From positions 4,350,001 to 4,382,000 of the forward strand of contig NC_010546.1 in the NCBI RefSeq assembly GCF_000017845.1: DNA of 32,000 bases, given 5' to 3'. Positions 9,799-29,961 of the stretch are shown piece by piece. Source of the DNA: Crocosphaera subtropica ATCC 51142 (GTDB lineage Bacteria; Cyanobacteriota; Cyanobacteriia; Cyanobacteriales; Microcystaceae). The notes beneath the pieces are model-generated. The model worked only from the letters and a program-made list of their open reading frames with translations, ran no database searches and was not told the origin of the DNA. The position numbers and the translations under genes are program-made. How positions within the stretch are numbered: position 1 is the stretch's first letter; every line of letters starts with the position of its first letter.

Positions 9799-9826
9799 GT
9801 AGGGGTCAGGGTCCCTTGACCCCTAC
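9799..9826. repeat. GTAGGG-prefixed palindrome (REP-like)
   Basis: GTAGGGGTCA gggtccct TGACCCCTAC, with perfect 10 bp arms. Confidence 0.6.
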
Positions 9827-14122: not shown

Positions 14123-14426
14123 TGTGTCCTCCTAAATTCCCCTAAGTGTGTACAATCATAGTGATCCCTTCTTTAGTGTGCTATTGCAACCCTAAAGTTA
14201 AGGGGATTTTTTGGGAATTTTTAACATCTCTTTCTAGATTGACTCTTTATGAAAAGAATAGACTGAAAAATTAATATTTCTCTACATAAGTTTGCTTGTT
14301 GCAACAAACTATCCTCTTTTGGTAGCGCAATAGTATTTATTATTTAAAATATACTTATCTAGTTTCGATAGATTTGACGACGATGACCAATTTTAATAAC
14401 TAAAATAACTATAGCATTTCCCACAG

Positions 14427-15375
14427 TTATGAAGTACAGTAACAGCAATGAGCAAACCAGTTACGAATATCTTTTTGAGTTACTTGTAACATGGCAAAAG
14501 TAAGAGAATCTATTAAATCTTTATAGTTTCTTGCTTTAATTTTTCTTAAAATAGCTTTGACCTTTGACCAAAAGTTTTCAATGGGAGAAAACTCAGGAGA
14601 ATAAGGGGGTAAATACATTAAACTAGCTCCAGCTTCTTCAATAGCCTCTCTGACTATTTCTCCTAAATGAATTTTAGCATTATCCATAACAACACAAGCA
14701 CCTGTCCATAATTTAGGCACTAATTCTGTAACAATAAAAGCTTCAAAAGTCACTCCATTTACTGAACCATAAATATTAGCAAAAGCTAATATTTTTTCTA
14801 AAAATAATGCTCCTATTATCGAGATATTATGCCCTCGCTTTTGTGGCTTTTCCCCCCTAGCTCTTGTTCCTTTTAATGACCTAGCATATAACCTAAGCAT
14901 TGCTAGATTGACTCCTGATTCGTCTATAAAGACTAAGTTTTCTACTCTTATTCCTCTGATAACTTTCCAATACTCTACTCTTTTCTTTAGCACTTTAACA
15001 TTTTCTTTTTCAGGAGCATATAAGGTTTTTTTTAAGAGAATAATTCAGTTTTTGACTTATTCTCCCTATGGTACTTTTTCCAACTTTTACTCCTGTTGCT
15101 TTTTCAAGCAACTCTGATAATTCTTCAAAAGTGGCATCATTATTCTTTTCCATTAGCTCAATTAAGATTATTAATTGTTCGCTATTTAGTTTACAGGGAG
15201 GTCTTCCTCCTTGGGGTAGAGGTCTAATATCTCCAGTTTCTTTATATTTTTTAATTAATTTTTGAATAAAACTTTTCGATACTCCAAAGTGTTGAGCTAG
15301 TTTTCTTATAGAAATTTTCTCTTTTTTCCAAATTTCTATAATCTTATTTCTTAGGTCTATTGAGTAAGGTCTCAT
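14427..15375 (-). CDS. IS630-family transposase in two frames (HTH part 15010-15375, DDE part 14427-14993)
   Basis: The N-terminal part is MRPYSIDLRNKII..., an HTH. The C-terminal part has VFIDESG...VVMDNAKIH...LPPYSPEFSPIE. The frames are joined by a -1 shift on the run A8 (forward T8 at 15026-15033), which gives ...SLKKKTLYAPEKENVKVLKKR... Confidence 0.8.
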
Positions 15376-15382
15376 TTTTTAA

Positions 15383-15414
15383 GCGATCCCGAAGGGATCT
15401 GCTCCGCAGTGCGC
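15383..15414. other. GC-rich hairpin block H1 inside the IS630 leader
   Basis: gcgatcccgaagggatctgctccgcagtgcgc lies between the transposase ATG (15375) and the IS end. The stem is GCGATCCC/GGGATC(t)GC, with a CTGC/GCAG mini-stem. Flanking DNA is strongly AT-rich. Confidence 0.5.
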
Positions 15415-15462
15415 ATAATATAGTTTCTCCCTTAGTGTACCTCATGGGTATGGGAAATGCTA

Positions 15463-15642
15463 TATGTTCTATTTCATTAATATTTGAAATATGTAATACT
15501 AAACCAAATGAAATAAAATCAGAAGCAGTAAACATAGTTATAATTCCTGGTTTAGTTAACAAAGATACAAGTAATCTTAATAAAATTGGAATCAACCCAA
15601 CAATAACAGTATAAATCAACCATTTTATTTTTTTATTTTCCA
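15463..15642 (-). pseudogene. Middle fragment of a 65-codon two-TM ORF disrupted by both IS elements
   Basis: Deleting IS4 (15643-16968 plus one 9-bp duplication) and IS630 (14412-15462 plus one TA) restores ATG(16978)-MENKKIKWLIYTVIVGLIPILLRLLVSLLTKPGIITMFTASDFISFGLVLHISNINEIEHSYFSY-stop(14393). The track ORF 15344-15667 is a chimera of this ORF with IS sequence. Confidence 0.4.
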
Positions 15643-15663
15643 CTGGAGGGCCTACACAGAAAG

Positions 15664-16858
15664 TCAAAAAGCTGATTGAATAATGGTTGCAGCCCTCAGA
15701 CCTCTCGAATAATAAGCGCGTTTGTTAGGAACAAGACGTATCAATTCCTGAACTTCTTCAGCAAAAAATGATAATGAGTTAAGCCAGGAATAGGCTTTCA
15801 ATCCGATAGAAAAACTACTATTTCTCTTATAACGACGCTTTGATTCAGATGGACGACTAACATAATTAGCGACTCCTTTTCTTAGGATTAGACTTCCTTG
15901 AAAAGTTGCCATTGAATAAGCTAGAGTTCCTAATAAGATTAGAGCGATTAATCTGTCTCCAGTTACTTGAGTTCCTTCTATATTATAACCCCCTAATTTG
16001 AAATCTCTAAACATTTCTTCAATGCCCATTCTATATGAGTAAGCTGCAGTTGCTGCTGATAAACTCTCTAAATTAGTTAAAATATACCAGGGTTCTTTTT
16101 GTGCTTTTTTTCGATAATTTCGTGACCATTTGGTTGCTAAATTTACTCCACTAAATCCTTTAGTCTTGGTGACTTTTACCCCCTGATAATATAGAGAAGA
16201 ACCTGGAGTTAATCCTAAATCTTTTAACTGAAACCAAATCTGCTCTTCTAACTCGACATATTCATGTTTTTTAAGTCGAACAGAGAAGTAGGTTTTCCTT
16301 TCACAAAGCCATCTAGCTAAATCCACATTACAAAATTCACGGACATCTCACGGTGGCGAATTCGATTCGCCACCCGTGTCCTCCTCTATCTCCTAAGACC
16401 ACTAATTTATAATCTTTTAGCAAGGAAATCACAGGCTCTAAGACTTCTTTTTGAGCTATTAAATTACTATTTCCTTTCTTGGGAAGCAACTTGAAATATA
16501 GAGGGATAGCTCTTCTGTGATATACTAAACTCACCATCAAAAGATTAATCTCTCGCCATTGACTTCTATCAATCACTAAAAATAAACATTCTTGGGGTTG
16601 GTATTGATTCTGTATCCATTCTAAAATAATCGGAAACCAGAGTTGTTTAATATTTAACTGTTTCAACGATAAAAATCTTTGTATTTTCTTGATACGACTT
16701 TTTTCTTTTATGGGACTAGGGAATTGAAAAGCAAGGTTTTCTAATCTTATCCATCGATGTTCTTGAATGAGATTAATGAGGATTGAAAGAATTAAAAACT
16801 GCACACAGTTCAACTGTTTTTTGAGATGCTTGCTGTATAATTGGGGCAATTGAATCAT
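15664..16858 (-). pseudogene. IS4-family DDE transposase split by a 46-nt insertion
   Basis: Track ORFs 16337-16858 and 15664-16326 are the two halves. Removing 16339-16384 restores ...YKLVVLGDREFCNVDLARWL... in one frame. Confidence 0.8.
16339..16384. other. GC-rich hairpin micro-insertion H2 (46 nt) in the IS4 transposase gene
   Basis: On the minus strand it reads ggaggaCACGGgTGGCGAATcgaATTCGCCACCGTGagatgtccgt. This is a 13-bp stem with one bulged G and a 3-nt loop, very GC-rich within an AT-rich gene. Confidence 0.75.
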
Positions 16859-17100
16859 TTTTTTTCAATAAATAATACTTATTGAGAACCCTGTCTCATG
16901 TCGGCAGCGTTTTTCCTTCTCAATCCCTGATTATATATGGCTTCTGACTATTAGTGTAGTCCCTCCAGTATTTTCCATTATTCTTTGCTTTATCTTAAAA
17001 ATAATCAGAAATTAGCTAGGCAAAAAATCTAAACTTATCTTAAAATATCATAATAATGAAAATTTTGCGCACCCTACGTAATTAATCGGACAACATATTA

Positions 17101-24805: not shown

Positions 24806-24830
24806 AGCAATGTAATTCAGCAAAAGTTGA

Positions 24831-24897
24831 GGGCATAATAATATTATGCCCCTACGATAATTATAATGTTTTGTAGGGGTTTAACACCGTTAAACCC
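24831..24897. repeat. REPIN-like doublet of GTAGGG-prefixed hairpins
   Basis: The minus-strand unit GTAGGGGCATAATATTATTATGCCC (24831-24855) and the plus-strand unit GTAGGGGTTTAACACCGTTAAACCC (24873-24897) face each other across a 17 nt spacer. Confidence 0.6.
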
Positions 24898-24922: not shown

Positions 24923-25699
24923 TTATTCCTCTGTATTCAAAGATAAATTAAGTTGCTCAATTTCTTGTAAATTCAATCCCGTTAGTTGAGAAATAACCTC
25001 CAGATTCATGTGATTTCTGAGCATATTTAAAGCAATATTTTTGATTGCTTGTTTTTGTCCTTTAACTTCCCCTTCATGGAAAATTTCTTGATAGATAACT
25101 GACTCTTTCATAATGTCACTCCTAAGAATTCGTTTAATACTGTCTTGATCTAATTTTAACCCAGATAGAATAGCTGTGGATGCACTGATATCACTTTGCC
25201 TTTGTTGATTAGGCATACTATCAATAATAGCAGCAATTTGGGTTAACGTTTCTCTGGGGTTATCGGTACAAGTTAGTACAGCAAAGGGTAATAAACCTGA
25301 GTTATTCAGAAAACTATCCGTGTTTTCTTCCCACAGACGAATAACATTAAATTGATGACGTAAATTAGTTAATTCAAAAGTATTTTGATACACTAATTCT
25401 GAATTACTCGGTTTCAAATAAATCACCACTTGATACATTTCTTTGTTAGGATAGCGACGATAAACCCGTAAACGATAGTCAGTCATCCTAAAAGGTATGT
25501 CTTCATCAGGTGAGGTTTGAAACTCAATATGTAAGACAATATCATCTGATTGCAAAAAGATTAAAGAATCTGCTCTAATAGGATTTAAAGATAGTTCTGT
25601 AGGTTTTAATTCCGTAAGTTCGATGGGTTCATTTAATAACCAGTTAGCAAAGTCACGGCTAAATCTTTCTGCTAGAAACTTACAAACGTTATCATACAT
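24923..25699 (-). CDS. Rpn-family recombination-promoting nuclease / PD-(D/E)xK putative transposase
   Basis: MYDNVCKFLAERFSRDFANWLL..., ADSLIFLQSDDIVLHIEFQTS and YRLRVYRRY are characteristic. The probable start is the ATG at 25699 (the track starts at TTG 25705). Confidence 0.75.
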   Translation of the reverse strand: MYDNVCKFLAERFSRDFANWLLNEPIELTELKPTELSLNPIRADSLIFLQSDDIVLHIEFQTSPDEDIPFRMTDYRLRVYRRYPNKEMYQVVIYLKPSNSELVYQNTFELTNLRHQFNVIRLWEENTDSFLNNSGLLPFAVLTCTDNPRETLTQIAAIIDSMPNQQRQSDISASTAILSGLKLDQDSIKRILRSDIMKESVIYQEIFHEGEVKGQKQAIKNIALNMLRNHMNLEVISQLTGLNLQEIEQLNLSLNTEE

Positions 25700-25748
25700 C
25701 AGCAATAAGAATAAGTTGACAAGATTAGACCATAATATAGCGTTTCTA

Positions 25749-26867
25749 AATGAGTCGTGAATAAAAAAAGCTCTGTTTAGGTAAAATTAAAAGAGTAATT
25801 TCAAAAAGAAACAAACTCATGATAATAGACAATAAGGAGAAAATTGAGCTAATTAAAGAGTTTCTTGAAAATTCATCAAACGGGAGAGAGACTCAAAGAG
25901 CTTTAGCGGTAAAGTTAGTGCTAGAAGGCTATCGTTATGAAAGAGTCTCAGAAATTTTATCTGTGTCACTAGGATTTATTAGTAAATGGGTTAATGCTTT
26001 TAATTTTGGGGGTATAAATGGTTTAAAATAAGGATACAAAGGAAGTAAAAGTTACTTAACAAATCAAGAACGTACCGAGATAATTGAGTGGCTAATTGAA
26101 CAAAAAACCTGGGATATTTCTGAACTAGAAGTTTATCTAATTGAGAAATATGATGTGGTTTATCAATCTCTTCAAAGTTATTATAAGATTTTAAAAGAGG
26201 CGAAAATTTCTTGGCAAAAGGGGCAACAAATTAATCCTAGATATCATGAAGAAGTCACTCAAAAAAAAACCAAGAAATAGCGCAAATTCTGGAAAATAGA
26301 CGAGAGGAAATAGATTCAGGAAAGCTGATAGTGTATATAGTTGATGAATGTCATCTTCACTGGGAGGATATTTGCGGATATCTATGGAACTTAATAAAAG
26401 AACCCTTAAAAATTCCTCTTTTAAATCCTAAAGAAAGACAGACATATTATGGGGCATTAAATTTATTAACTCAAGAATTTATTTTGCTTCCTTATCAAAA
26501 AGGAAATGGAAAAAACACGGTAGATTTTGTCCAACAATTACAGAAAAAAAATCCCGAAGCTAAAACCTTATGGATTTGGGATGGAGCCAGTTATCATAGA
26601 GGAAAAGAAATGCAAAAGTTTTTAGCTAGAGAAAATCAAGATTTGTCACCAGAAGAATGGCGAGTAACCTGTTGTCTTTTTGCTCCTTATTCCCCTCAAG
26701 AAAATCCCGTAGAAGCAATTTGGTTACAACTCAAAACTTTACTGAGAAGATTTTATAGATTTGGGAAAAATTTTAAAATTGTTAAACGTCTTTTTCAACT
26801 TTTTGTTGAGTTGAAACTATTCAATCTTCCTAATTTTAAAAACTACGAGGCTTTTTCACGATTCAGT
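25749..26867 (+). mobile_element. Decayed IS630-family element
   Basis: The inverted repeats are AATGAGTCGTGAA (25749-25761) and TTCACGATTCAGT (26855-26867). TA lies on both sides (25747-48 and 26868-69). Confidence 0.6.
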
Positions 26868-26870
26868 TAG
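25819..26870 (+). pseudogene. IS630-family transposase with an in-frame TAA and a frameshift
   Basis: The HTH part spans 25819-26031. An in-frame TAA lies at 26029-31, and the frame then continues GYKGSKSYLTNQERTEII.... A frame change occurs at the A9 run (26261-26269). The DDE part YIVDECHLHW...APYSPQENPVE spans 26331-26870. Confidence 0.7.
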
Positions 26871-26954: not shown

Positions 26955-27005
26955 TTTGTTTAGCTGAATTTTGAAAATTTCTTTTAGTGTAACATAAATT
27001 CTTAA

Positions 27006-27072
27006 GGGCATAATCATATTATGCCCCTACGATAATTATAATGTTTTGTAGGGTTTTAACACTGTTAAACCC
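27006..27072. repeat. REPIN-like doublet, second copy
   Basis: gggcataatcatattatgcccctac ... gtagggttttaacactgttaaaccc. It is collinear with 24831-24897, with a few substitutions. Confidence 0.6.
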
Positions 27073-27097: not shown

Positions 27098-27665
27098 TTA
27101 TTCCTCTGTATTCAAAGATGAATTAAGTTGCTCAATTTCTTGTAAACTTAATCCTATTAATTTAGCAATCTCCTCCATATTCATGTTATTTCTGAGCATA
27201 TTTAAAGCAATATTCCTCGTAGCTTCTTGTTTACCTTTTATCTCTCCTCTTTGTTCTCCTCTTTTTTCGCCTTGAATTTCCCCTTCATGGAAAATTTCTT
27301 GATACATCACTGATTCTTTCATGATATCGCTCCTAAGAATTCGTTTAATACTGTCTTGATCTAATTTTAACCCAGATAAAATGGCTGTGGATGCACTAAT
27401 ATCACTTTGCTGTTGTTTATTGGGCATACTATCAATAATAGCAGCAATTTGGGTTAAGGTTTCTCTAGGGTTATCGGTACGAGTAAGTACAGCAAACGGT
27501 AATAAACCTGAGTTATTCAGAAAACTATCTGTTGTTTGTTCCCAAAGACGAATAACATTAAATTGATGACGTAAATTAGTTAATTCAAAGGTGTTTTGAT
27601 TCACTAACTCTGAATTACTAGGTTTCAAATAAATCACCACTTGATACATTTCCTTATTGGGATGG
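27098..27665 (-). pseudogene. 5'-truncated paralog of the Rpn-family gene
   Basis: It aligns with 24923-25445 at roughly 90 percent identity by eye. It has an extra GEKRGEQRGEIKG repeat and lacks the N-terminal ~75 codons. Homology ends near 27665. Confidence 0.7.
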
Positions 27666-27862: not shown

Positions 27863-28540
27863 ATGAAACCTTATTCTATTGATTTACGTCAGAAAATTAT
27901 TGAAGCTTATCAAAACCAAGAAGGTTCACAAAGACAGTTAGCTAAACGCTTTAAAGTTAGTCTTAGCTTCACTCAAAAATTATTGAAGCGATATCGCGAA
28001 ACCAACGAGATAGAACCTCGTAAGAGTGGAAAAGGATTTATTGCCAGACTAGAACAGCATACACAGGTGGTTGAGAAATTAGTTGCTGATAATAATGATA
28101 TCACTTTAGAAGAATTACAAAACTCTCTTGAATTAGAAACAGGGGTCAAACTATCTATTAGTAACATTTGTCGTTTTCTACAAAGAAAAAAACTGACTCG
28201 AAAAAAAGCGAGTCAAGCTGCAACTGAAAGAGTCCAAGGTCTTCGATTTAACTATTGGAAACAAGTCAAAAAAGTTGACATGGAAAATTTAGTATTTATT
28301 GATGAAATGGGAGCCAATCTAGCTTTAGCTCGTAGATATGCTCGTTCTCTTCAAGGGACTCGTGCCTATAGTCAACAGCCTTTTTACCCTGGACAACATT
28401 TAAGTTTAATTGGAGCGATTGCTCTTAAAGGTTTTATAGGAGGAATGACTCTAGAAGGAGGAACAAATGGTATAGCTTTTCAAGTTTTTTTAGATAAAGT
28501 TTTACTACCCCAACTTTGGCCAGGTGCTTGTGTAGTAATG
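27863..28540 (+). pseudogene. IS630-family transposase (second subfamily) interrupted and 3'-truncated
   Basis: MKPYSIDLRQKIIEAY...VFIDEMGANLA...PGACVVM is then broken by the IS982 insertion, exactly at the conserved VVMDN block. Only ~30 nt of possible continuation follow the insertion. Confidence 0.75.
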
Positions 28541-28825
28541 ACCTGAGTTCGATATAAGATAATCGGCTATAATTTAGTCACTGAAAGGATTACAGGCATT
28601 TTCGATTATTTACCAGTTCTCAATTACTGTTGATTAATGATAATGAAATGAATTAGAAACAGAATCAAGGTAAGATATTGATTCTGTGACAGAAACAAGC
28701 CAAGACTTATCCCAAGCCTTCGATTTAGCCAAACAAATTTTAAGACATAAAAAATCAGTCAGAATATCTCTAGCTAAATTTCTTTCTAAATTATATAATC
28801 TTCCTGTAAAACCAGAAGATTTACA

Positions 28826-29788
28826 ATGATAGAAATAGAAACCTTATTTTATCAAATTGATGATTTTTGTCAAGCCTTTTCTCCAATTTTTGAGTCTCAT
28901 CTTCTTCCCCATAAAGTTGTAAAAAGAAAAAGAAAATATAAATTATCTTTAAGTGAAGTAGCTACAATAGTCGTTTATTTCCATTGTTCAGGCTATCGAA
29001 ATTTTAAAGATTACTACGTTAAGTATGTCTTAAAACATTTTCAATTAGAATTTCCAAAATTAGTTAGTTATAATAGATTTGTTGAATTAATTCCATCAGT
29101 TTTAATGCCTCTTATACTGTATCTTAACACAAGAAAAGGAGAAGTAACAGGAATTAGTTTTATTGATTCTACAAGATTACCTATTTGTTCCAATAACCGA
29201 GCCACTCGGAACAAAGTTTTTGAAGGGTTAGCTAACTGGGGAAAAAGCTCAACTGGTTGGTTTTTCGGCTTTAAGTTGCATTTAATTATTAATGATAAAG
29301 CGGATGCGACCCAACCGCCGTTGTACGGCGATTGGAACGCGCACCAAGAAGGCGAACTTTTATCTTTCCAAGTAACTCCAGGTAATGTGGATGATAGAGT
29401 TCCAGTTAAAGATTTAGTTGAGGAACTTTTTGGAAAACTATATGGTGATAAAGGTTACATTTCTTCTCCTTTATTTCAGAAGCTTTTTGAGAAAGGAATC
29501 AAATTTATTACTCCTTTTAGGAAGAAAATGAAAAACCGTTTATTACCCATGATTGATAAAATCATGTTGAGGAAACGTTCTTTAATTGAAACCGTTAATG
29601 ACCAACTTAAAAATATTTCCCAAATTTCTCATTCAAGACATAGAAGTGTTTTGAACTTTATGGTTAATATCATCGCTGGTTTAATTGCTTATACACATCA
29701 AGAGAAAAAGCCATCTCTTAATCTTGATCATGAGGAATATACTTACCTTCCCAGCATGTTAACTCCTTCTGAAAGTCTCTTATTTTGA
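28826..29788 (+). CDS. IS982-family DDE transposase carrying a 17-aa in-frame insertion
   Basis: ETLFYQIDDFCQAF, FIDSTRLPICSN, GKSSTGWFFGFKLHLIIN, PGNVDDR, GDKGYIS, SLIETVNDQLKN and HSRHRS. A 47-codon upstream ORF (GTG 28686) overlaps the ATG by ATGA. Confidence 0.85.
   Translation: MIEIETLFYQIDDFCQAFSPIFESHLLPHKVVKRKRKYKLSLSEVATIVVYFHCSGYRNFKDYYVKYVLKHFQLEFPKLVSYNRFVELIPSVLMPLILYLNTRKGEVTGISFIDSTRLPICSNNRATRNKVFEGLANWGKSSTGWFFGFKLHLIINDKADATQPPLYGDWNAHQEGELLSFQVTPGNVDDRVPVKDLVEELFGKLYGDKGYISSPLFQKLFEKGIKFITPFRKKMKNRLLPMIDKIMLRKRSLIETVNDQLKNISQISHSRHRSVLNFMVNIIAGLIAYTHQEKKPSLNLDHEEYTYLPSMLTPSESLLF
29300..29350. other. GC-rich hairpin micro-insertion H3 (51 nt, in frame) in the IS982 transposase gene
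   Basis: gcggatgcgacCCAACCGCCGTtgtACGGCGATTGGaacgcgcaccaagaa encodes ADATQPPLYGDWNAHQE between IINDK and GELLSF. It is about 60 percent GC by hand count, within a ~30 percent GC gene. Confidence 0.7.
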
Positions 29789-29961
29789 AATAGTCACTTA
29801 ATCAAGTGGATTGATTTTAGCCAGTATTTGAAAATGCTAACTGGCTTGAATTATCGTGTTTATTTTTCTTAAGATGCTATTTCTTTTTTTGGAGATTTGC
29901 GGTTCTTCCTTACATCGAACTCAGGTTAATAATCTCACTTGGAAATACAACCTATGATTTC

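Follow-up and report, generated by a model that had tools for sequence, protein, structure and literature searches.

Introduction

How the smallest palindromic repeats move is largely unsolved, whether they are repetitive extragenic palindromic (REP) sequences, Rickettsia palindromic elements (RPEs), small dispersed repeats (SDRs) or mitochondrial GC clusters. The GC clusters of yeast mitochondria are GC-rich palindromes of 30–55 nt in AT-rich DNA, with conserved ends and variable cores, and lie sometimes within coding sequence. The byps of Magnusiomyces are derived translational-bypass elements that are skipped by ribosomes. SDRs, as Elhai and colleagues are said to have described them in 2008, are 21–27 nt long and abundant in Nostocales, and their mobility was reportedly deduced from filled and empty sites. 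Here we analysed a stretch of 32,000 nt of Crocosphaera subtropica ATCC 51142 (contig NC_010546.1, positions 4,350,001 to 4,382,000; hereafter the window, to which coordinates refer unless a locus is named), in which the transposase gene of an IS4-family insertion sequence (IS) is split by a 46-nt hairpin. We consider it probable that these 46 nt represent F1, a GC-rich DNA hairpin of 45 nt that is mobile and non-autonomous and for which ISs serve as tolerated landing pads and as vehicles. F1 is an apparently undescribed family of mobile palindromes, found almost unchanged in many unicellular cyanobacteria, and two further hairpin insertions in the window belong to sister families, F2 and F3, that behave like it.

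With SDRs, set against our elements by their reported description and not by sequence, F1 and its sisters share that they are cyanobacterial hairpins with compensatory changes and with filled and empty homologous sites, that insertions can be nested and that no protein is encoded. They differ in that F1 and F2 are 45–51 nt long, GC-rich and low-copy, occur in Chroococcales and Pleurocapsales, and have fixed ends around a swappable stem; only F3 (24–26 nt) falls within the SDR size range. REPs and REPINs (paired REPs) are likewise short imperfect palindromes read as hairpins, without target duplication or coding capacity. However, F1 has no GTAG or CGTC tag at either end and, as far as pattern-limited scans reach, is low-copy, mostly intragenic and free of doublets and clusters; moreover, we know of no F1-flanked gene for a REP-associated tyrosine transposase (RAYT). 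F1 is also distinct from MITEs (miniature transposable elements with inverted repeats), as no target duplication accompanied it in four comparisons of filled and empty sites and its 45 nt lie below their size range.

The earlier note on this DNA had compared the hairpins to RPEs and to mitochondrial GC clusters, and as an analogy this is apt. As with RPEs, insertions can be in frame and leave the open reading frame (ORF) intact: F1 does so in IS701, F2 in IS982 and twice in the IS4 transposase P0005, and both lengths, 45 nt for F1 and 48 or 51 nt for F2, are divisible by three, the 46-nt F1 insert of the window being the exception. RPEs, however, are ~100–150 bp long and for the most part immobile relics, and their hosts are housekeeping genes of a bacterium that is obligately intracellular, whereas F1 and F2 are three times smaller and lie mainly in IS genes. 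GC clusters differ in being organellar and in making short target duplications, and, in contrast to byps, we have no evidence here that F1 is skipped by ribosomes. IS200/IS605 elements and palindrome-associated transposable elements (PATEs) provide a mechanistic model only: hairpin recognition on single-stranded DNA, a specific target, no duplication and seamless excision. These elements have two subterminal hairpins, at least 100 nt and a constant 4–5 nt 5′ target, whereas F1 has a single hairpin and no such target was seen for it; F2 does have a constant A-run in the 5′ flank at six of eight sites, and F3 has the highly iterated palindrome HIP1 as its target. Finally, as with homing introns and inteins, F1 occupies an identical position in a conserved motif of diverged homologues, the invader is better conserved than its host and close relatives are empty. 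Unlike them, F1 encodes nothing, is too small to splice, kills the host gene and occupies many unrelated sites.

Results

A discrete insertion splits an IS4-family transposase gene

Exact matches to its LeuRS and succinate-semialdehyde dehydrogenase place the window in C. subtropica (Cyanothece) ATCC 51142. The host element, read directly from the sequence, covers 1328 bp including F1 (15642–16969, minus strand). It has terminal inverted repeats ACTGGAGGGCCTACAC and GTGTAGTCCCTCCAGT and is bordered by a 7-bp target duplication, ATTTTCC, at 15635–15641 and 16970–16976. Its transposase is encoded in two pieces on the minus strand. The upstream ORF (16337–16858) encodes a 173-aa N-terminal fragment that ends in ...VVLGDRGGHGWRIEFATVRCP*, its last 15 residues, GGHGWRIEFATVRCP, being encoded by F1; the downstream ORF (15664–16326, 220 aa, beginning at ...DLARWL) encodes the rest of the DDE domain, including the Y-2-R-3-E-6-K signature (YSYRMGIEEMFRDFK), with no internal stop. 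The insert lies between codons R158 and E159 at 16339–16384, on the minus strand; since its edges slide by one G, 16338–16383 is equivalent. Across it the minus strand reads ...TTAGGAGATAGAG, then GAGGACACGGGTGGCGAATCGAATTCGCCACCGTGAGATGTCCGTG, then AATTTTGTAATGTGGAT, with ...GGAGATAGAG as the longer left flank, and the insert is composed of the 45-nt F1 core, GAGGACACGGGTGGCGAATCGAATTCGCCACCGTGAGATGTCCGT, plus one extra G. Deletion of exactly 46 nt yields one continuous 382-aa IS4 transposase with the junction ...VVLGDREFCNVDLARWL, as the earlier note had proposed. F1 is the sole lesion of the element: it shifts the frame and creates a stop in CCG TGA, and the window IS4 is predicted to be inactivated by this frameshift and stop.

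The restored 382-aa protein matches Pfam DDE_Tnp_1 and has 2078 homologues at E<1e-20, mostly of 382–383 aa, with a top identity of 92%. In an alignment of 120 homologues, the G, R, E and F of the GDREF block that receives the insert are invariant and the D is present in 119; D97, D157 and E265/266 are the conserved acidic residues. From knowledge of the family we take D157 to be the second catalytic Asp; a sequence search of the PDB, meant to place the catalytic Asp on Tn5, gave no match. All markers of the IS4 family were found, namely DDE_Tnp_1, the GD(R/G)E(F/Y) block, Y-2-R-3-E-6-K, terminal inverted repeats and a target duplication. The insert itself folds into a 13-bp stem with one bulged G, at a DNA folding energy of -14 kcal/mol (z = -4.4; none of 200 shuffles folds equally well). 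Its GC fraction is 0.62 against 0.34 in the flanks, a local contrast that ranks second in the window.

Three related IS4 copies (L023, L024 and L025; their sources are an ENA metagenome, a Logan assembly and C. chwakensis CCY0110) align to the window copy with a clean 46-column gap and read GGAGATAGA|GAATTTTGT (GATAGA|GAATTT) at the site. Identity of the window copy to these empty copies is 88%, 88% and 84%, while two other filled copies, from cyanobacterium SU3 and from CCY0110, reach only 75% and 59%. Precise excision would leave the joined string GATAGAGAATTTTG, and the junction strings of filled copies are GATAGAGGAGGACAC and GTCCGTGA[ATG]TT. Because empty sites exist for all three hairpins of the window, these are discrete insertions and not products of decay. 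The filled locus recurs in the independent Logan assemblies SRR26036484, SRR26036486 and SRR26036488; the exact 173-aa fragment recurs in other assemblies only at this locus, and the filled IS4 is single-copy in the C. subtropica genome.

F1 has fixed ends around a covarying stem

F1 has a fixed 5′ end, GAGGACACG, and a fixed 3′ end, CGYGAGATGTCCGT, which enclose a stem of 9–10 bp and a 3-nt loop. The sequence of the stem is free yet self-complementary and the total length is kept at 45 nt, a length found exactly in 20 of 21 sequence variants. Structural counts were made on 24 distinct sequences, with shuffles and slid alignments as controls. All 24 begin with GAGGACACG and finish with GAGATGTCCGT. 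Between the same ends, four unrelated inner stems occur, GGTGGCGAAT/ATTCGCCAC, TCATTTGAGG/CCTCAAATG, CATTCTGAGG/CCTCAGAAT and CGGGGCGAGG/CCTCGCCCC; the swapped-stem copies came from in-frame 15-aa inserts in intact IS701 transposases. The fraction of cells paired was 98.7%, compared to 89.1% in shuffles, and pairs changed on both sides numbered 8 of 16, compared to 3.0. The covariation score was 0.269 against 0.078 in shuffles, none of 500 of which reached the observed value, and at most 0.10 in slid controls. Fixed ends together with a covarying stem indicate recognition of the ends by their sequence and of the stem by its shape. G-T wobbles in the stem, counted for a role as RNA or as DNA, were uninformative (2 events on one strand, 3 on the other). 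Five of the six reading frames through F1 are open.

Collections were scanned with patterns anchored on fixed strings, and all copy numbers are therefore lower bounds. In total, ~45 copies were found at ~21 sites in Crocosphaera, Waterburya, Pleurocapsa, Xenococcus, Stanieria and metagenomes. A scan for the inner palindrome in one genome per species, a set that lacked the source genome C. subtropica ATCC 51142, gave 15 loci, with the whole element in 11 and different flanks around it; ten of these 11 genomes are named (three Waterburya, Pleurocapsa, Xenococcus, Xenococcaceae, Chroococcales, two Crocosphaera and SU3). A plain 20-mer from the 3′ half of F1 detected 26 further metagenome contigs, in which the gapped end-to-end pattern had found no match. 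BLAST placed F1 on plasmids of Stanieria PCC 7437 and Chondrocystis NIES-4102, and none was found in the viral contigs scanned. Exact-core matches numbered one per genome in 11 genomes, in a scan limited by its pattern. Two copies occur together only at L011 and on the Stanieria plasmid, 1.7–2.7 kb apart and in direct orientation, and the window holds a single copy.

F1 did not correspond to known structured elements. Rfam 15 gave no gathering-score match in the window and seven loci, and none at E<=1 in 15350–16450. At F1 neither strand gave a terminator-like call, and the flanks vary between sites. At all loci the copies are single or widely spaced, which is not the arrangement of a CRISPR array. 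The searchable literature (keywords REP, HIP1, RAYT and others) held no description of F1, F2 or F3 elements.

F1 inserts precisely, mostly into IS genes

Comparisons of filled and empty copies showed that F1 inserts precisely, in either orientation relative to the host ORF and without target-site duplication. In IS701, exactly 45 nt were gained after residues 7, 126 and 285, with no duplication; only the IS4 site gains 46 nt, at most a single-G duplication. At the residue-7 site, eight Myxosarcina copies are empty and read CCCGC|AGCCATG; of the 120 best intact IS701 homologues, nearly all start M(K/R)ETTPAAMPPC. A position in the IS701 5′ untranslated region was considered for this copy and rejected in favour of in-frame insertion after residue 7. 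In-frame copies persist within otherwise intact 436-aa IS701 transposases. Filled IS701 copies are 84% identical to one another and equally 84% to an empty copy, an identity that does not distinguish a single from a repeated insertion. A 1-nt target duplication was likewise rejected: flanks match at 7 of 16 sites, not significantly above the ~27% expected by chance, and the three verified 45-nt insertions contradict it. The tetranucleotide ATAG at -6 to -3 is common to the IS4 and the IS701 residue-7 sites, a likeness too weak to use; among the 5′ flanks of ~17 sites no tetranucleotide is shared.

The majority of known F1 sites lie inside IS genes. By Pfam and NCBIfam, the hosts are IS4 (two kinds), IS701/DDE_5 (several sites), IS1 and IS630-type helix-turn-helix domains; further hosts are a resolvase-type (IS607-like) gene beside tnpB, TnpB itself and a site adjoining an ISKra4-like gene. 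Sites outside ISs are intergenic or on plasmids, such as one that follows a 5S rRNA gene and one that separates zupT from a tetratricopeptide repeat (TPR) gene. Loci L020 and L042 are MITE-like, internally deleted IS701 copies that consist of the left end, F1, ~70 nt and the right inverted repeat TTTAAGTCCCGTTA. Since F1 is borne both by ISs with intact IS701 proteins and by such derivatives, ISs act as its vehicles. Except at the IS4 site, no general targeting is needed to account for the excess of F1 in IS DNA, given that ISs multiply and can be dispensed with. The earlier note had read three of three insertions in IS DNA as a signal. IS DNA makes up ~25% of the window, and the count is not significant once essential genes are excluded and only dispensable DNA is counted as target.

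Plasmid pSTA7437.03 of Stanieria (L026, 1257–1299) and plasmid 3 of Chondrocystis NIES-4102 (L027, 4001–4046) have in common a degraded F1 with a decayed 3′ arm, held in a near-identical zupT-TPR segment. The shared segment indicates plasmid-borne exchange between genera, and the decay of this orthologous copy implies that inserted copies are not protected. On pSTA7437.03 a second, intact F1 lies 2.7 kb off, with thermonuclease and tyrosine recombinase genes between the two copies. At L010, a rearrangement breakpoint falls within F1 (GGACAC|GGG), which hints that the hairpin may be recombinogenic.

One IS4 nucleotide is occupied in four diverged copies

Four filled IS4 copies were found, in two clades: the window copy with that of SU3 (L009), and that of CCY0110 with a metagenome contig (L019, L041). 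All four agree in the nucleotide at which F1 sits, in its orientation and in the extra G, and the junction reads CCG-TGA-(A/T/G). Within each clade the flanks are 80–86% identical and F1 is identical at 45/45 positions; between clades flank identity is ~66% and F1 identity 42/45, the only difference being a flipped loop. That four such diverged copies are filled at one site argues for some form of targeting there, which appears to be real.

Downstream of F1, the ratio of nonsynonymous to synonymous substitution rates (dN/dS) is 0.096 at dS 0.73 between the CCY0110 and metagenome copies (L019–L041) and 0.175 at dS 0.59 between the window copy and SU3, compared to 0.10–0.16 for intact IS4 pairs. 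No stops interrupt the C-terminal half in the window copy, L019 or L041. These values and the stop-free C-terminal halves suggest that most of the divergence accumulated while the gene coded for a working protein. L009 and L019 carry extra frameshifts. Two readings of this pattern are conceivable. In one, the filled allele is still functional or is being passed from IS4 to IS4, and the common extra G and the loop orientation within clades speak for it. In the other, F1 entered each copy recently and on its own at the identical site; we prefer this second reading, as the extra frameshifts in two copies, the single-copy state and the emptiness of closer relatives fit it.

F2, F3 and other micro-insertions

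The three inserts of the window are not homologous to one another and fall into three families of tiny palindromes defined by their structure, which are met again in unrelated contexts and genera, in line with the first alternative of the earlier note. Both other hairpins that it had pointed out are real insertions with empty sites. That in IS982 has the extent given there: F2, GCGGATGCGACCCAACCGCCGTTGTACGGCGATTGGAACGCGCACCAAGAA, occupies 29300–29350 on the plus strand, is 51 nt long and in frame, adds 17 aa (ADATQPPLYGDWNAHQE) to an otherwise intact transposase and is absent from Nostoc IS982. The IS630 hairpin is smaller than had been described, 24 nt at about 15389–15412, and lies in the leader and not in the ORF.

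F2 has the form GCGG(T/A)GCGACCC, a variable hairpin, then AACGCGCACCAAGA, over 48–51 nt, and was found at nine further places, with the A-run in the 5′ flank at six of eight sites. BLAST of F2 against plasmids gave no match; its core is variable. In CCY0110 (L025, AAXW01000061), the intact 415-aa IS4 transposase P0005 has two in-frame F2-type inserts of 16 and 17 aa, at L025 1516–1563 and ~2379–2429, the first with F2 ends and a fully compensated lower stem, GGTTTGC/GCAAACC. The IS982-family host of the window F2 (28541–29926, plus strand; inverted repeats ACCTGAGTTCGAT and ATCGAACTCAGGT) is nested in a second IS630-like copy (27863–about 30000; ORF 27863–28546). The region of 24.9–30 kb around it is an IS graveyard adjoining clpC, which also holds Rpn-like paralogues and an IS630-like pair at 25819–26870.

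F3, CCGAAGGGATCTGCTCCGCAGTGC on the plus strand, splits the centre of a HIP1 octamer (GCGATCGC) between the left inverted repeat and the ATG at 15375 of its IS630-family host (14410–15464, minus strand; inverted repeats 14410–14442 and 15432–15464; ORFs 15010–15375 and 14427–14993). In five other copies of the same IS630, HIP1 is intact and the 100% identical flanks read ...ATGCGATCGCTT; in a related metagenome copy (L053, about 490–535), removal of F3 likewise restores HIP1. Hairpins of a 24–26-nt class may therefore use HIP1 as their insertion target. In IS701 copies L040 and L042, the same left-end HIP1 site holds larger GC-rich insertions.

In degenerate metagenome IS701 copies (L030, L038, L040, L042 and L046), as many as three or four distinct palindromic micro-insertions, all GC-rich, occur in a single copy, with ends such as GTGCGGAA...TTCCGCAC, GTCAACG...CGTTGAC and GATGCAG...CTGCATC. 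Near IS701 codon 21, two families lie within ~10 nt of each other, and there seems to be one case of nesting. Further micro-insertion families probably number three or four at the least. The window also holds REP-like palindromes with a GTAG tag, at 9799–9826 (GTAGGGGTCAAGGGACCCTGACCCCTAC), 24829–24856 and 27004–27031 (GTAGGGGCATAAT...ATTATGCCC), the latter two following paralogous YhgA/Rpn-like genes (24923–25705 and 27098–27649). Cyanothece 51142 is reported to have GTAG-15/16 families (PMC3733652), of which these are probably members; they are clearly unlike F1–F3.

Discussion

A probable mobile hairpin tolerated by its hosts

The recency of F1 is apparent from copies identical at 45/45 positions in IS flanks of only 80–86% identity, and its identity across genera implies a recent spread between them. 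For F3, the flanks that filled and empty IS630 copies have in common without a single difference likewise speak for recency. The dispensability of ISs lets F1 insertions survive, and their multicopy state and horizontal mobility carry F1 between genomes. F1 itself would be moved in trans by an enzyme that reads the foot of the folded hairpin, most plausibly on single-stranded DNA; TnpA of IS200/IS605 or the RAYTs, which make no duplication and excise seamlessly, could serve as model enzymes. The repeated filling of IS4 would then reflect a strong site preference and recent, independent insertions. Cyanobacteria, Cyanothece 51142 among them, are known to have HUH and RAYT enzymes as well as REPs (PMC6006769; PMC3733652).

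Several points weigh against this account. No mobilising gene is linked to F1, although no genome-wide search for one was made. The copy number is low, with one exact-core match per genome, unlike that of REPs. Among about 17–21 independent sites no common target motif was found. The odd extra G is common to all four filled IS4 copies and loop orientation is the same within clades, which hints at common descent or copying from IS4 to IS4 rather than at independent insertions. Furthermore, the conservation measured for the anchored parts of F1 is partly a matter of ascertainment, as scans were anchored on fixed strings, and the share of copies in ISs is inflated by metagenome contigs, which are short and enriched in repeats.

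Alternative explanations

A more specific role is conceivable but rather unlikely: F1, and by analogy F2 and F3, could be a hyperparasite of ISs that homes seamlessly into conserved transposase positions, foremost the GDREF DNA of IS4. If so, F1 would ride active ISs and plasmids between genera. Excision as precise as insertion could make occupancy a reversible off/on switch of IS activity, and such a switch would explain why filled IS4 copies have diverged in the manner of functional genes; in a variant of this proposal, the filled IS4 would be kept alive by a +1 frameshift at CCG_UGA_A.

We give slightly less credence to the possibility that F1 entered one IS4 once and then spread by homology-dependent copying within the GDREF core, through gene conversion or homing-like repair. 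The extra G of all four filled IS4 copies, as opposed to exactly 45 nt at the three verified IS701 sites, is what such copying would produce, as is the identical loop orientation within each clade, and the surroundings of GDREF are the best conserved stretch of the IS. Yet flanks that are ~66% identical between clades, with no identical run longer than ~8 nt beside the insert, fall far below the usual requirement of RecA-type recombination; the four copies come from different organisms, and similarity near the insert is no higher than empty copies show.

It is improbable that the filled IS4 is an old, functional allele in which the 46 nt are tolerated or regulatory, for instance through a +1 frameshift at CCG_UGA_A or through split polypeptides. 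In the +1 sites of prfB and antizyme, a stop codon in the A site follows the P-site codon. By speculation, the CCG TGA A junction would permit a +1 shift into the correct frame, giving a transposase with the 15-aa insert GGHGWRIEFATVRCP and the spanning peptide ...FATVRCPEFCNVDLAR. The shared position, orientation, extra G and junction of the four filled copies agree with an old allele, and so do the signature of purifying selection downstream of F1 and the stop-free C-terminal halves of three of them. However, re-pairing from CCG to CGU is poor, the insert lies two residues past an invariant and putatively catalytic Asp, two copies have acquired extra frameshifts, the filled IS4 is single-copy here and the nearest relatives of the window copy (92% at the amino acid level) are empty. 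Such an allele also requires that 45 nt, loop included, remained frozen over a dS of ~0.6–0.7, while F1 decays and swaps stems elsewhere.

Still harder to sustain is the suggestion of the earlier note that a host process deliberately marks or disables transposase genes, here as defence or silencing by GC-rich hairpins. It draws on the preponderance of IS genes among F1 sites, on the location of all three GC-rich micro-insertions of the window in IS DNA and on two sites that follow a catalytic Asp, GDR|EF in IS4 and WFLD|E in L047, if the latter is, as we read it, the first-Asp motif of IS630. But an enrichment in ISs is expected from tolerance and hitch-hiking alone, two of the three window insertions leave the ORF unbroken, both orientations occur, and many copies are harmless, being in frame in 436-aa IS701 and 415-aa IS4 transposases, in a leader, intergenic or on plasmids; nor do we know of an associated host-defence gene. 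An assembly error or a cloning linker or adaptor has next to no standing: the central GAATTC and the EcoRI- and Kozak-like string GAATTCGCCACC do resemble common primer tails, and the only literature string match to the F1 core was to EcoRI-Kozak cloning primers, but three independent read-set assemblies contain the filled locus, and the element recurs across unrelated genomes (11 assemblies), in 26 metagenome contigs and on 2 finished plasmids, with compensated stems in some copies and with loop variants that lack GAATTC.

Significance

With F1 probably a mobile hairpin tolerated in and carried by ISs, F1–F3 provide clean material for the question of how the smallest palindromes move: a fixed length, invariant ends, a covarying stem, many filled/empty pairs and recurrent landing sites, namely the GDREF codons of IS4, A-runs and the HIP1 octamer. 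The identical copies of F1 across genera point to recent activity. The surprising features are that catalytic-motif codons in IS4 are filled recurrently and that HIP1 is apparently used as a target. As an insertion target, HIP1 would gain a concrete property for a motif whose function is debated. For the annotation of ISs and for estimates of their activity, a cyanobacterial transposase ORF that is split or lengthened may have received a micro-insertion and not have decayed. ISs can themselves be parasitised by smaller elements, which inactivate or merely decorate them.

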